Shown piece by piece: positions 38,817-46,323 of a stretch of 64,000 nt of DNA. Location of the stretch: IMG/VR virus record IMGVR_UViG_2531839366_000001, positions 1-64,000 of that record; one strand, given 5' to 3'. The notes below the pieces were generated by a model. It was not told the DNA's origin. It did no database searches and was given only the letters and a program-made list of their open reading frames with translations. The stretch is from a virus (Duplodnaviria > Caudoviricetes). Within the stretch, counting starts at the first letter, position 1. Each line of letters begins with the position of its first letter. The position numbers and the translations under genes are program-made.

Positions 38817-38912
38817 ATGGAAAATCAAAGTTGGGGTACACCGAAAATAAAGGGGCGTGGCATGGTCAAATGGATGCCATTTGCTTCAATGCCAGAGCAG
38901 TATGAAGGAATC
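38817..38912 (+). pseudogene. yolD: yolD-like gene, 5' part (interrupted)
   Basis: MENQSWGTPKIKGRGMVKWMPFASMPEQYEGI; joins in frame to 46324. Confidence 0.9.
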
Positions 38913-38985
38913 TGTGATAAGAACCATAAGTTTGCCGGAACGGCAAGTTTATGGTTCTTTTTGTTTATGGCAAACTTATGCTTCC
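38913..38985. repeat. Left end L1 with three transposase-binding-like sites
   Basis: Sites at 38925-38937 (inverted), 38941-38953 and 38968-38980. Confidence 0.85.
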
Positions 38986-39249
38986 GGTAATATTGATGTT
39001 TTTGAATTAAAGCTAAGAAGGAATTCTTCAACCATGGCACCAGAAATCACCTTTTATGAGCTCACAAAAGATTTTTAAGTACTTTTAATTGTGGATTTAA
39101 AACAAAGTTAAATCGTTTATATGTGAATTTTTGATAATATAGGATTTTTTTATTAAGCAAACGGGCCATTTTTCGGAACAATAATCCATAATATATTAGT
39201 AATACCATGTGCAAACTCAATAGAGAGACACAATAAAATTTTGAGATGG

Positions 39250-39577
39250 AGGTATTCAGAACAAAAAAATACTGTTAGGAATGCAAAAACAAACTGGGGT
39301 TATGTAGCTTCGTTTTGTGCAATTTTATATGCAGCACCACATTTGTGGTGGGGATTAGGCATTGATTTTGTATTTACAGGTAAATGTAACTAGTAGCTGT
39401 TTTGACAGCATTGTTTGTCCTTTAATTTGTAAGACCTTTGGGAGAAAAATTCCAAGTCTTTTGTTAATAATACCAGGGTGGATTTCAGCAGCAGGATTAA
39501 TGTTTTGGGGTCTGGGCGTATTCAACAACGGGTGCATTTATTTAATAGGAATAGCCGCTTATTTTTTTTTGTGCTAA
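39250..39577 (+). pseudogene. Degraded membrane-protein gene (DUF3995-like)
   Basis: Fragments NWGYVASFCAILYAAPHLWWGLG and LLIIPGWISAAGL in broken frames. Confidence 0.5.
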
Positions 39578-39962
39578 TGATTAAGATTTTCAATAAGAGA
39601 GAAACACAAAACATTTTTGAGTATTAGACTTAATTAAGTGAAATACATACAAATACCCATAGCGCTCTAAATTGGAGTGCTAAATATACTTATTGATTAT
39701 ATTACCCAAATGAGGTTTTACAATAAAAGCGTTAGCAACGACTTTAAGTTAAAGATTTTGTGTCTAAAGTTGTTGAGGCTATAAATAAAAGAGATAGTAA
39801 CATAATGAATTAATTCACGATTTTTCTCTCCTTTCTTTATAACTTTCTTTTAAAAGGGGCTGCTTCATTAAGAAATCTGCCTCTTCCATATTACATTACA
39901 TTTTCCTTTTGAAAAACTATAGAAAGAATAGATCTAAAAAATTTAATAGAGTATATAAACAT

Positions 39963-40007
39963 AAATTAAATTGTAATGGTTAAATTAAATTGTAATGGTT
40001 AAATTAA
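39963..40007 (+). repeat. 19-bp tandem repeat upstream of the large cargo gene
   Basis: aaattaaattgtaatggtt x2 plus a partial third copy. Confidence 0.85.
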
Positions 40008-40081
40008 CAAGATAATTAGGTGTTAATTTTACTTTTTTGAATTTATGGAACTTCGGATTTTCAATAGAAAGGGTGAGAAAA

Positions 40082-43000
40082 ATGGATGATCATCTATCCC
40101 AAAATGATGTTTTTAAATTTGTAGCACTTAGACCTCCAGCTGCAATAGATTCTGACACGGAGGAAAAAAGATTCATTAAAGACAAAAGGAATCCAGAGGA
40201 TTCTATTGTTCTAAAAGAGATTGACAAGTATTTAGCAGAGGGTGTAGGAGAAGACAAATACTTTTCAACAATTCGAAGCCTCATTACAGAACATGGATAT
40301 TCTCCTGATTTCTCCTTAGAGAAGAATCAAATGTTTTTAGACATAGATAAGCTGGTTAAACAAAGTCAAAAAGAAAGTAATGGACCACAACTGATAAAAG
40401 GAATGGAGTATATATTAGGTGTTGTTCCATCTGAATATATAAAAGCAAATGAGTACAATCAAATACTTAATCATGTATGGGATAGTCTATATGCTTTTCA
40501 TATAATAAATCGGGTTGAGCCAGTCAATCTTGAGAACCTTATTCAGGATCTGAGAATACTTCACATTATTGAATATTGTTCAAAGGAATCCTCGTTTAAA
40601 AATAATATGGAATTAAATGATATTTATGAAGCTATTCCTGTATTGCCAAAACAAGTTTTTACCATTCCGAATAATCCTGGAAGTAAGTCAGAATATCTTA
40701 TTACAGATATTCATAAATCCGAGGAAATGCATTATATAAAGCAACTTCAGGACTTTATTAGATTGTATAAAGCACATGAAGAGATAAAAGCCATTCCAGA
40801 TTATTCTAAGGATGCCTTTAAAATACACGACGCAAATGTGAGAGAAGATAATGATTGGATAGGAGGACATATTAAAAGATGGTTACTAAATGGAGATGTA
40901 GTTAAAAGTTTGAGTGATGATACCAAGTCGGTATTAAAGAACTCAAATTTGAATATTGAAAATGATGGGTTCCTGGAAATTCTCAAAAGCTTGGAAGAAC
41001 AATTACGCATAAAATCGAACAATCTTGTAAATGCTCCCAACTATGATATTTTAAAAGAATTACCTGAAGAAGTTGAAAGTATACCTGGATTAAAAAGTTA
41101 CTTACATTGGATAATTGGAAAATCATCTAATCCTATCACGTCGAAGAACCTTTCTTCTTCTTTGGATCTAAACTTTCCGCATTCCGATATCATACGACCA
41201 CTATCTCCTTTGGACCCAACTTTTTCGAATTCTGGTATTATACGACCGCTGGGAATCGGAGATCTGAAGGTAGTAAAGCAGACGTTGGTAAAGTACGCAA
41301 AAGGGGAAGTAGCCCATATAGAAAATGTGCTACTAGGTGAACATAAGGATAGAAAACATCGCAGGCTAGATCGTACAGAAGAGATATTTATGACAGAAAA
41401 AGAAACAACTGAGGCTGAAGAAAAGGATAACCAGAGTACGGAACGGTTTGAATTAAAACAAGAAACAGAAAAAAACATTCAGTCTGACGAGAGTAAGCAA
41501 GCTGGGATAACAGTTAGCGGAGGCTATGGACCCGTTCAAATTACTGCTCAGGGAAACTATGCTACAAGTTCATCTGTTTCCGAGTCTAAAAGAGCTTCCA
41601 TGAGCTTTGCTAAGGATGTTATTGATCGATCCGTTTCTAAAGTACAAAAGAGGTCACTAGAAAGAAGAACTAGAAAAACACTGCAGGAAATAGAAGAAAT
41701 AAATGAACATGGATTTGATAACAGAAAGGGCAAAGGACATATATCTGGTATTTATAGATGGGTTGACAAGCACTATAAGGCACAGGTTTATAACTATGGA
41801 AGTCGGTTAATGATGGAATTCATTGTACCGGAGCCTGCCGCATTTTATCTTCATAGTAAAAAATATAAACCTTTAACTGGGATGCCAGAAAACCCAAAAA
41901 ATTTAGATATTACTCATAAAGATCTAACAAGTTGGAATTACCATCAATATATAAAGGCGTATAGGGTTCAAGGAGTAAGCCCTCCACCAGCAACCTCCAC
42001 AGTGGTTTCAACCGCTTTAGATAAGCCATCCGCGGAGAAAAAACAGGAGAATTTTGCAAAATCATACAAGGAAATACAGGTTCCTCCAGGTTACCGTGCA
42101 AGATGGAACTATGTTTTGTTCAATTCCATCGGGGATGATGATTCTTGGGCGACTCTTAATGTAGGAATGTGTCTATATGATCTTGCAAGAAAAAACAATA
42201 ATCTTGGTAAAGCTTTATGGCAGGGGATGTGGCATCAGCCAACTGAATTCCAGAGGATATATCTAGATGGAATGATTCCGGTAAGCATTTTAACAAGATA
42301 TATAGATGCGTTCGCTCTGAATATTGAAATTCTTTGTGATGTCACGGAAGAAAGATATGAAGAGTGGCAATTGAAAACATATGACGCTATATTAACAGCT
42401 TATCATACAATGAAGCAGGATTATGAAAGAGCATTAGCATCCCAGACACTAGGAACCGTTATCTCAGGAAACAATCCTGAAATGAACCGGGTTATTGAAA
42501 AAGAGGAGCTTAAAAAGTGGTGCTTAAATCTTTTTACTAGACAAAGTTTCAATGTTTTTAATGCAATGATCTATCCTTCTAACACTACTATTAAGGGATT
42601 ATATCCAGAAATCAATTTGGATATGGCTACGAGTCAGGGGAAATACATCCAATTTTTTGAACAGGCTTTTGAATGGGAGAATATGACCTATCTTTTCTAT
42701 CCTTATTTTTGGGGTAAGAAGGATGATTGGGTAGATAAACTTAACATACAGGACGCTGATCCCCTTTTTACTAAGTTTTTACAGGCGGGTTCAGCCAGAG
42801 TAATTGTTCCAGTTCCACTGGCTTATAGACACGCAGTCTTACATTATCTTGAGACAAGCAGACCTGATAGACCAGGGGATATTTGGAATGGAGGAGATGC
42901 TCCTGTATTAGACGATCCTCTGTATATATCAATTGTAAATGAACTAAGATCTCAACAGGATCCATATAAAGATGCAATTCCAGAGGGAGATCCATGGGAT

Positions 43001-45051: not shown

Positions 45052-45504
45052 TAGGGGGCTTAACGCCTTATGACAACGAACCAAAACTCAATAGATTAAT
45101 CGCTGAGATTACAGGTTTGCGGGGCAAAACTGCTAAAGGGGGCCTGCCATAGGTCACCCCCAAAACGATAAAATAGGATTCTTTGTTACAAGAAGGTCTA
45201 AAATTTCGTTCCGGGGGTGCTGCAAAATTTTAACTTGATGGCGATGCGTCAGGACTCCTTAAAATAAAGGATGCGTTACTTTAAGAAAAATAAGCTAAGT
45301 TGTATCTGTTTCTCTATTTTTGTTATTCCATTATAGGGCGCTTTAATGGAATAAGGATCACAGAAATGATCATTCTTTTTTATAAAAGAATGATTCAATT
45401 AAATAAATTAAGAACGTGTTTTGAAAAAAGATTGATCAAAATACGTTCTTTCTTTTTGCTCATTTATCAAGTTTATTAGTATCAATTTGACCAAACATTA
45501 TTCC

Positions 45505-45578
45505 TGTGATATGAACCATAAGTTTTCCGAAACGGCAAGCTTATGGTTCTTTTTGTTTGCGGCAAACTTATGCTTCCT
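45505..45578. repeat. Internal second left end L2
   Basis: TGTGATATGAACCATAAGTTTTCCGAAACGGCAAGCTTATGG...GCGGCAAACTTATGCTTCC, nearly identical to L1. Confidence 0.9.
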
Positions 45579-45783
45579 GTAGCTTTGAAATAAATTCGTA
45601 CCGATTATAAAAAAGTTGATCGTTTTATCCCTTTGGGTTTACTTATCTATAGGGATATTTTTATTAATAAAAGAAACATGATATATAAACTGAATATAAA
45701 AACGTTTTAATTCTTTAAAAATATTCCATAATTTAGTATTGTTTAAATATGGAATATTTTGTTTACATGAAAGGGGTAACTAT

Positions 45784-45987
45784 ATGTTTTTACAAAAATA
45801 TAAAGGTTTGATTATTGGGATAATTGGTGCTGTTATAGGGATATTATCTTTCTTTTATCTTAAAGATTTAGATTATATGTATAGATTGGGCCTTAGATTA
45901 TTTTCTATAACATTAATAACTATAGGATGGATTATTGTCGAGAATTCGAACCATTTCTATAAAAAAAAGGATAATGGTAATGTATAG
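45784..45987 (+). CDS. 67-aa 2-TM protein
   Basis: ATG 45784 with RBS GAAAGGGG; two hydrophobic helices. Confidence 0.7.
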   Translation: MFLQKYKGLIIGIIGAVIGILSFFYLKDLDYMYRLGLRLFSITLITIGWIIVENSNHFYKKKDNGNV

Positions 45988-46175
45988 ATGTTACTATTCC
46001 CAAATTTTTTTTGCGTTTTATTAATCAGAGAATCACATAGTAAGGTTAACATGTGTAATTTTAATCAACCATTTTTATAAAAATCAATCTTAAATCTACT
46101 GGAAAAGAATCTATTATAAAATCAACGTTTGTAGCATGTTTTTGATCAAACTTTATTACAAACAAACAGCATTCA

Positions 46176-46318
46176 CGGCAAGTTTATGGGTTAATAATTA
46201 ATCCACGGCAAAGTTATGCTTCCATTTTCTTTGAACAATTAGATAAATATCTTCTAAAACAAGTGAATTCCGGCAAGTTTATGCTTCCAATTGCGGCAAA
46301 CTTATAGGTAAAGTGACA
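46176..46318. repeat. Right end R with four same-orientation sites
   Basis: CGGCAAnnTTAT at 46176, 46206, 46271 and 46294; terminal GTGACA. Confidence 0.85.
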
Positions 46319-46323
46319 GAATC

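Follow-up and report, generated by a model that had tools for sequence, protein, structure and literature searches.

A probable non-autonomous, cargo-carrying Tn7-like element inserted in yolD of a Bacillus cereus-group phage

Introduction

A transposon-like segment that brings no transposition genes into the phage gene it interrupts raises three questions: what kind of element it is, what would move it, and how it comes to be at that site. Such a segment, 7.4 kb long, lies inside the yolD gene of IMG/VR virus record IMGVR_UViG_2531839366_000001 (79 kb). Coordinates are those of the 64,000-nt window of this record that we analysed, in which the element spans 38913-46318. We conclude that it is very probably a non-autonomous, cargo-carrying member of the Tn7-like clade with fused TnsA and TnsB, with yolD targeting and with transposition machinery supplied in trans.

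Tn7-like elements are studied for their target choice and are a source of programmable insertion tools. What their known selectors recognise is an essential chromosomal gene, a tRNA gene, a replication structure or the target of a guide RNA. Mini-elements that consist of ends only are routinely moved in the laboratory by proteins supplied in trans; to our knowledge, natural cargo derivatives that lack the transposition genes (here called gene-less) have not been described for Tn7 itself. The B. cereus group does have mobile insertion cassettes and miniature inverted-repeat transposable elements (MITEs), such as MIC231, that lack a transposase, have the ends of an autonomous element, in some cases hold passengers, and are moved in trans. 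These cassettes derive from single-transposase insertion sequences (IS) (IS231, of the IS4 family), with no target selector or site-specific homing.

Boundaries and end sites of the element

The element and the interrupted gene comprise the following features, the duplication copies found by sequence reading and the sites by motif scan.

38817-38912 (+): 5′ part of yolD, 32 codons, ending ...KGRGMVKWMPFASMPEQYEGI and adjoining the left end
38908-38912: target-site duplication, copy 1, GAATC
38913-38996 (+): outer left end (LE1), with the TGT terminus, one outward site (offset 13) and two inward ones (offsets 29 and 56)
38925 (-), 38941 (+), 38968 (+): outer left-end sites
46160-46318 (+): right end (RE), four direct, outward-pointing sites at offsets 13, 36, 101 and 131 from ACA
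46176, 46206, 46271, 46294 (all +): right-end sites
46319-46323: target-site duplication, copy 2, GAATC
46324-46581 (+): 3′ part of yolD, 85 codons and stop, Pfam YolD 3.5e-18

The termini are TGT (38913-38915) and ACA (46316-46318). The left one reads TGT-GATAAGAAC-CATAAGTTTGCCG and the right one, on the opposite strand, TGT-CACTTTACC-TATAAGTTTGCCG. Ten CGGCAAnnTTATG sites are present in the element. With at most one mismatch, the motif CGGCAARNTTATR has 12 matches in the window where 1.27 are expected, a count that none of 100 shuffles attains, and 10 of the 12 fall within the element. The sites form asymmetric arrays of putative transposase-binding repeats, of which each left end has three and the right end has four.

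In-silico excision, which joins 38817-38912 to 46324-46581, gives an open frame of 117 amino acids (aa) that aligns colinearly across the junction with several uninterrupted yolD alleles. An empty site is found on the B. mycoides plasmid pl50 (50-kb, phage-like), which is 96% and 92% identical to the two flanks. Its yolD (L187 3018-3371) is uninterrupted, encodes 117 aa and reads ...GAAGGAATTCGCGG..., or at greater length ...CAGTATGAAGGAATTCGCGGAATACTTGAGG....

TGT...ACA termini, a 5-bp duplication and asymmetric multiple end repeats are hallmarks of Tn7-like elements. A further hallmark, the encoding of TnsB, TnsC and TniQ, is lacking in this copy, which is therefore classed as a non-autonomous derivative: homology searches for TniB, TniQ and TnsAB detect none in the element or anywhere in the 79-kb record. 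An initial annotation of this DNA, made from the sequence alone, had reported the ends, the duplication, the ten sites, the restored YolD and the lack of tns/tni genes inside, and all of these hold. The sole rve domain and DDE transposase of the record belongs to an IS3-family element at 17702-18933 (-), with a 119-aa helix-turn-helix (HTH) open reading frame (ORF) and a 235-aa HTH_21/rve/rve_2 ORF; it is unrelated to the Tn7-type ends.

Autonomous relatives and clade

The same ends bound an autonomous element of 14.8 kb in a Bacillus chromosome (G052:C1:4884225-4899052; G and L numbers are our handles). Its left end is identical to that of the phage element at 69-71 of 75 positions and its right end at 128 of 165, with identical site offsets. 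The gene order is tniQ(HTH)-tnsAB-tniB-tniQ, and the products are a 451-aa TniQ with HTH, an 888-aa fusion of TnsA_N, rve and Mu-transposase_C, a TniB/AAA_22 protein and a small TniQ of 311 aa. The cargo is a type I restriction-modification system. In Nodularia and on a Tolypothrix plasmid, such ends bound a compact element with a TnsA-N/TnsA-C/rve protein of ~900 aa, a TniB-type ATPase and TniQ, and fused TnsA/rve proteins of 885-909 aa are encoded at L135 and L136.

In the clade with fused TnsA and TnsB, left-end sites occur in both orientations and right-end sites in one (PMC9881144), which is also the layout here. G052 shows the corresponding protein traits: a single TnsA-TnsB polypeptide, and a large, TnsD-like TniQ beside a small one. 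The element had initially been described as of Tn7/Tn5053/Mu type. The cognate TnsAB-TniB-TniQ locus upholds Tn7 and narrows it to the fused clade; Tn5053 and Mu fall away. That it is non-autonomous and would depend on a helper, as also proposed, is consistent with a machinery-free copy whose ends recur around the G052 locus.

Several other candidate partners were rejected. The tniQ-tnsAB-tniB-tniQ element on pBFI_1 of B. cereus 03BB108 is a cousin only, with another site motif (GGCCAAATT). The rve matches on the first two plasmids turned out to be IS3/IS6 elements, and the TnsA matches in G001 and G002 are one fragment and one different Tn7-like element without this motif.

Recurrent insertion in yolD and next to the tmRNA gene

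Besides the phage copy, five elements with these ends have a junction in yolD.

L164: 283-bp MITE, duplication AAATT
L188: 1.47-kb element, duplication CAATT
L190 (B. cereus FRI-35 p01): 2.2-kb element, duplication GGGAT, 1-nt offset
L172 (B. thuringiensis): >19 kb, with flank GTATT and no more than the left end seen
L189: left end only, flank GCATA

All six junctions are at the same Ile codon, one of them 1 nt off, and every element is oriented alike, its left end facing the 5′ half of yolD, in alleles whose protein identity goes down to ~45%. The insertions are taken as independent because duplications match within elements and differ between them, because of the 1-nt offset, and because the contents are very different. 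By this comparison of sequences, yolD is a recurrent target, specific in position and orientation, and not a chance landing. The gene occurs chiefly on mobile DNA such as phages and plasmids, beside error-prone polymerases, and the family seems to spread via yolD as a phage- or plasmid-borne landing site. The B. thuringiensis element (L172) has the same cargo pair as the phage element, the large gene being 94% identical at the DNA level, and its yolD comes after the apparent C-terminus of a Y-family polymerase gene.

The 5′ part of yolD is probably the recognition side, and by analogy with the clade we infer that the recognised sequence lies in the conserved 5′ block (KGRGMVKWxPF..., at the DNA level GGxATGGTxAAxTGG...CCxTTxGC).

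Chromosomal copies show a different neighbour. At L014, L152 and L158 the 3′ end of the tmRNA gene is 29-32 bp from the left terminus. These distances and the side fit published homing by TnsD in this clade, 30-33 nt past a tRNA gene (PMC10293859), and the finding that >99% of insertions in the clade have the left end beside the target (PMC9881144).

A junction pattern search of 105 genomes gave matches that were nearly all unrelated coding sequence. In the limited library that we searched, we found no paper that names yolD or the tmRNA gene as a Tn7-like target, and no account of this Bacillus branch or its many gene-less cargo cassettes; a literature search on the site motif gave unrelated papers only.

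Two further yolD loci were seen. On a B. toyonensis plasmid (L196 689-1045), a free 814-bp mini-element of the kind described below lies 14 bp past the stop of an intact yolD, not at the usual codon, and this yolD comes after a Y-family polymerase gene. On B. cereus FRI-35 p01 (L190 11172-14780), as also at L006 2692-6311, Tn554-like tnpA/tnpB/tnpC genes are directly 5′ of a yolD with its 5′ end cut off. The yolD behind the Tn554-like genes also bears a Tn7-type element. A single yolD gene may have served two unrelated classes of transposon, which recalls Tn553 of staphylococci.

Composite structure

The 7.4-kb element is a composite containing a mini-element of 814 bp.

45505-46318 (+): inner mini-element, LE2 to RE, 814 bp
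45505-45588 (+): inner left end (LE2), complete, with the three-site layout of LE1
45517 (-), 45533 (+), 45560 (+): inner left-end sites (motif scan)
45784-45987 (+): 67-aa predicted membrane protein of the mini-element

LE2 has 88% identity to LE1 over 85 nt, and its first 25 nt match the left end of the autonomous G052 element exactly. The mini-element occurs free on B. pseudomycoides pN451-2.2 (99.4% identity, duplication AATAT) and on a B. toyonensis plasmid (98.4%, duplication AAAGA); an identical 67-aa product is annotated on free copies. The five nucleotides 5′ of LE2 are ATTCC, unlike GAATC, and so the last jump would have been that of LE1 with the right end of the mini-element. No trace of a right end was found 5′ of LE2.

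In the simplest history, the mini-element would have inserted inside a larger cargo element elsewhere. LE1 would then have paired with the right end of the mini-element in the last transposition, which would thereby have taken along 6.6 kb holding the conserved two-gene module described below.

Distribution of the family

The left end is matched on 104 Bacillus plasmids. One of them, B. pseudomycoides pN451-2.1 (L005), has two gene-less elements head to tail, with duplications ATTTG and TGTAT, whose cargoes are an alpha/beta-hydrolase in one and an HD-domain protein with an SDR oxidoreductase in the other. Independent 5-bp duplications occur at nine copies other than the phage one. The same end layout is found in cyanobacteria, in one Chloroflexia metagenome-assembled genome (MAG) and in one acidobacterial MAG, and short MITE-like copies in Chloroflexia and cyanobacteria have duplications CCTGC, CAATA and GTAGA. 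These distant loci were picked by clustered sites, since the terminal pattern alone gave mostly chance matches across the collection. In the phage collection, no record has the element ends or covers this yolD.

Left ends of this subfamily are present in 49 of 71 Bacillus-genus genomes, and a reversed control pattern in none. Relatives of fused tnsAB are present in 13 of the 71 species genomes, so gene-less copies and fossil ends far outnumber autonomous elements. Head-to-tail arrays with spacers of 3-8 bp are frequent (L005, L156, G052), as repeated use of a fixed insertion point predicts; Tn7-type target immunity normally blocks such arrays (PMC11014353).

The initial annotation had expected the ends to recur with other cargoes, targets and duplications, a DDE transposase locus to share their motif, and an empty yolD allele to exist; the loci above, the TnsAB-TniB-TniQ element G052 and pl50 answer to all three. 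The composite with its second left end at 45505-45588 and its free-standing mini-element, the recurrent yolD target and the tmRNA-adjacent chromosomal copies go beyond it.

The genus has at least four subfamilies of ends side by side (L152, L156, L158, L160, L005, L135), with core sites ...TTTGCCG, ...TGGCCG, ...TTGTCCG and ...CTTCC, and the core site on pBFI_1 is an additional type. Elements of different subfamilies are found in tandem, which may be an escape from each other's target immunity. A degenerate left end, TATGAT..., with the terminal TGT lost, recurs at similar chromosomal coordinates across many species (G010, G014, G020, G038, G053, G063, G067, G068 and others). It has the look of a fossil end passed down by vertical descent, perhaps close to the tmRNA site. 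In a Pyrinomonadaceae MAG, from a distant phylum, a left end of the same design adjoins a 1161-aa TIR-WD40-Roc-DUF4365 protein, a defence-like cargo (L060 2116-5881).

Alternative explanations

Three alternatives concern what the element is and how it was put together. IS21, Tn5053/Tn402 and Mu-type elements likewise have TG...CA termini, 5-bp duplications and repeated end sites, and on these features any of them could be the family in question. We consider this barely credible, because the autonomous elements found with these ends all code for a fusion of a TnsA domain with rve, for a TniB-type ATPase and for TniQ, and none for IstA/IstB, a TniR resolvase or Mu genes. Between the ends of the autonomous copies are TnsAB, TniB and TniQ in place of the IstA and IstB of IS21; the TnsA domain of the cognate elements, and a core without a visible resolvase, set them apart from Tn5053/Tn402; and the 5-bp duplication and TGT/ACA ends do the same for the Tn554 family. 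The element could also be dead, a formerly autonomous copy that lost its tns genes at this spot and with them its mobility. The absence of transposition genes would then be explained, and the missing internal right end tells of a rearrangement. This is improbable, given that the outer termini and both duplication copies are intact, that the mini-element is 99.4% identical to free copies elsewhere with other duplications, that B. thuringiensis has a related left end with the same cargo pair in a different yolD allele, and that gene-less copies are the rule in the genus. A better chance, still a minor one, goes to assembly in place, whereby the mini-element entered the yolD site, a cargo element later entered between it and the 5′ half of yolD, and the inner right end was then deleted. 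Tandem arrays are common in the family, and one site used repeatedly would yield the same outer GAATC copies. With ATTCC and not GAATC before LE2, and no right-end trace there, insertion of the mini-element into a larger element elsewhere fits better.

The remaining alternative concerns the target. The phage insertion could be an untargeted hop, the other yolD insertions reflecting common descent or tolerance of yolD loss. The gene is probably dispensable, so that insertions in it would persist, and many copies of the same ends are at sites unrelated to yolD. Tolerated loss would, however, spread insertions along the gene, whereas six junctions share codon and orientation in widely differing alleles, the complete ones are each flanked by a matched duplication of their own (GAATC, AAATT, CAATT, GGGAT), one is 1 nt off, the elements differ in content and in length (283 bp to >19 kb), and close relatives have empty sites. 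We strongly disfavour a chance landing and hold it to be very improbable. Targeted insertion of a helper-dependent element, which we prefer, has its own difficulties. Two of the six yolD junctions (L172 and L189) display the left end only. No autonomous element was found inside yolD, and many plasmid copies of these ends are at sites that are neither yolD nor ssrA, for which other pathways or relaxed targeting would have to account. Conservation of DNA beside the insertion point, 15 versus 10 invariant positions of 66, does not clearly favour either side. G052 adjoins a remnant end of another copy, so that its own duplication is unreadable. Mobilisation in trans is deduced from structure, and a resident helper for this particular copy is postulated.

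Proposed mechanism

We propose that a resident autonomous relative, of which G052 is an example, would supply TnsAB, a TniB-type TnsC and a TniQ/TnsD-type selector in trans, the element retaining only the cis-acting ends. The selector, which we postulate from the junctions, would recognise a conserved part of the gene, which probably lies within the 5′ half of yolD beside the left end. TnsC would direct cut-and-paste insertion at the fixed Ile codon, in one orientation and with a 5-bp duplication. A second pathway would put family members 29-32 bp past the tmRNA gene on the chromosome.

More tentatively, and with somewhat less than even confidence, we suggest that the Bacillus branch has a dedicated protein-guided pathway, in which one of the two TniQ proteins reads the yolD 5′ block, and which functionally replaces the TnsE pathway of Tn7 or CRISPR-guided plasmid targeting. 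If the family does home to yolD, it would have converged on the target of the unrelated Tn554-family elements of staphylococci, and gene-less cargo and mini-elements would ride phages, with the cargo behind an SOS-controlled promoter.

Cargo genes

The cargo is a conserved, unannotated two-gene module.

40082-43507 (+): cargo gene 1, 1141-aa protein (1156 aa from TTG at 40037)
43586-43891 (+): ORF of 101 aa that runs into the start of cargo gene 2, also found in an 88%-identical contig (L174)
43888-45051 (+): cargo gene 2, coding for 387 aa, of which the C-terminal third is hydrophobic

The 1141-aa protein is a member of a large, well-conserved and unannotated family whose typical length is ~970 aa and which spans phyla (317 matches at E ≤0.001, with many invariant residues and no Pfam domain). 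It and its closest relatives have an extra C-terminal region of discoidin type (F5/8 type C); the Pfam F5/8 type C domain is recorded on one close relative, and was faint in one look-up. In B. thuringiensis and Mesorhizobium, homologues of the 387-aa protein are encoded directly 3′ of a relative of the large gene, and in Paenibacillus and Massilia an unannotated 673-aa protein is in their place. Neighbourhoods of the family are variable, often with IS elements or integrases.

The cargo had initially been called a candidate toxin locus, for which we find no support: the proteins have no match in Pfam, NCBIfam or PADLOC, no sequence-profile match in the PDB and no fold match to any toxin. The best score in the ESM Atlas is 0.77, under the lead threshold. 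For the 387-aa protein, the AlphaFold model (mean predicted local distance difference test, pLDDT, 72.5) gives a best Foldseek E of 0.27 and a best Z of 6.0, nothing above noise. The weak fold rows that would make it a PD-(D/E)xK-type nuclease are within that noise and were not relied on. For the 1141-aa protein, the model is poor (pLDDT 50.5), and its best Z of 7.9, to a generic beta-sandwich, is likewise within noise. Defence systems fit known Tn7-like cargo (PMC8649781), and we speculate that the module may be an accessory one of such a kind.

Just 5′ of the large gene, at 39962-39999, is a perfect 19-bp tandem duplication (TAAATTAAATTGTAATGGT twice).

The phage and the yolD promoter

From its genes and DNA matches, the record is a temperate phage with plasmid-like traits from the B. 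cereus group, since it has FtsK/SpoIIIE, ParA, holin and PlyG-type amidase genes and its DNA matches phages of BtCS33/phBC6A52 type.

38764-38777 (+): palindrome AGAACATATGTTCG, resembling a LexA (Cheo) box, in the yolD promoter region, ~40 bp 5′ of the yolD start

The palindrome has one mismatch to CGAAC-N4-GTTCG and is weak statistically, as 10 of 100 shuffles yield at least two matches. It suggests that yolD, and possibly the same-strand cargo after it, may be SOS-controlled. With the cargo genes in the same direction as yolD, damage-induced read-through from yolD into the cargo is possible.

Elsewhere in the phage, at 28043-29938 (-), is a 631-aa ORF with AAA_21/AAA_15 (AbiEii/OLD-like ATPase) domains, a type frequent in anti-phage defence systems.

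Relation to known systems

The closest known elements are the cyanobacterial, tRNA-targeting ones with fused TnsA-TnsB (among them type I-B2 PmcCAST and type I-D McCAST/CyCAST; Hsieh & Peters 2023, PMC9881144; Faure et al. 2023, PMC10293859). Shared with them are TGT/ACA ends, the 5-bp duplication, the left end with sites in both orientations, a cognate TnsAB fusion with a small TniB-like TnsC and a large and a small TniQ, and left-end-proximal insertion ~30 nt past the end of a tRNA-like gene, here that for tmRNA. The core site motif of the Tolypothrix plasmid element is nearly identical to that here. Unlike those elements, the phage copy has no transposition genes and no CRISPR module and is in a Bacillus/phage host, and its family has the protein-coding yolD as a second recurrent target, inserts inside that gene, and abounds in tandem arrays and gene-less copies.

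Prototypic Tn7 (TnsABCDE) and mini-Tn7 likewise have three left and four right sites, a 5-bp duplication and oriented insertion at a fixed distance from the recognised sequence, and Tn7 likewise has two target pathways, one chromosomal and one favouring mobile DNA. Tn7 differs in its separate TnsA and TnsB, in end sites that all point in one direction, in a right end turned towards glmS, and in a mobile-DNA pathway that relies on TnsE and features of replication in place of a gene sequence. In Acinetobacter, the Tn7-like Tn6022/AbaR islands in comM share an attachment site in a disrupted protein-coding gene and the formation of cargo islands, but have separate TnsA and TnsB, an extra TnsF, strong target immunity and a chromosomal target, and are autonomous (PMC11014353).

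Tn553 and Tn7702, of the Tn554 family, insert in divergent yolD genes of staphylococci, both chromosomal ones and those on conjugative plasmids, a choice of target proposed to help them spread horizontally (PMC10763498). They transpose by tyrosine recombinases (TnpA/B with TnpC), with no target duplication and no TGT/ACA ends (PMC10763498). The use of yolD by both families looks convergent. The fused-TnsAB kind of Tn7-like element, attachment inside a gene (Tn6022) and yolD as a target of Tn554-family elements were already known.

Significance

If our reading is true, a selector with a typical phage and plasmid gene as its target would open a new and simple route from chromosome to vehicle. 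The many unannotated gene-less cassettes of B. cereus-group genomes and plasmids, an end of which is carried by 49 of 71 species representatives, would bring accessory genes among chromosomes, plasmids and phages. The convergence of two unrelated transposon classes makes yolD merit a closer look.

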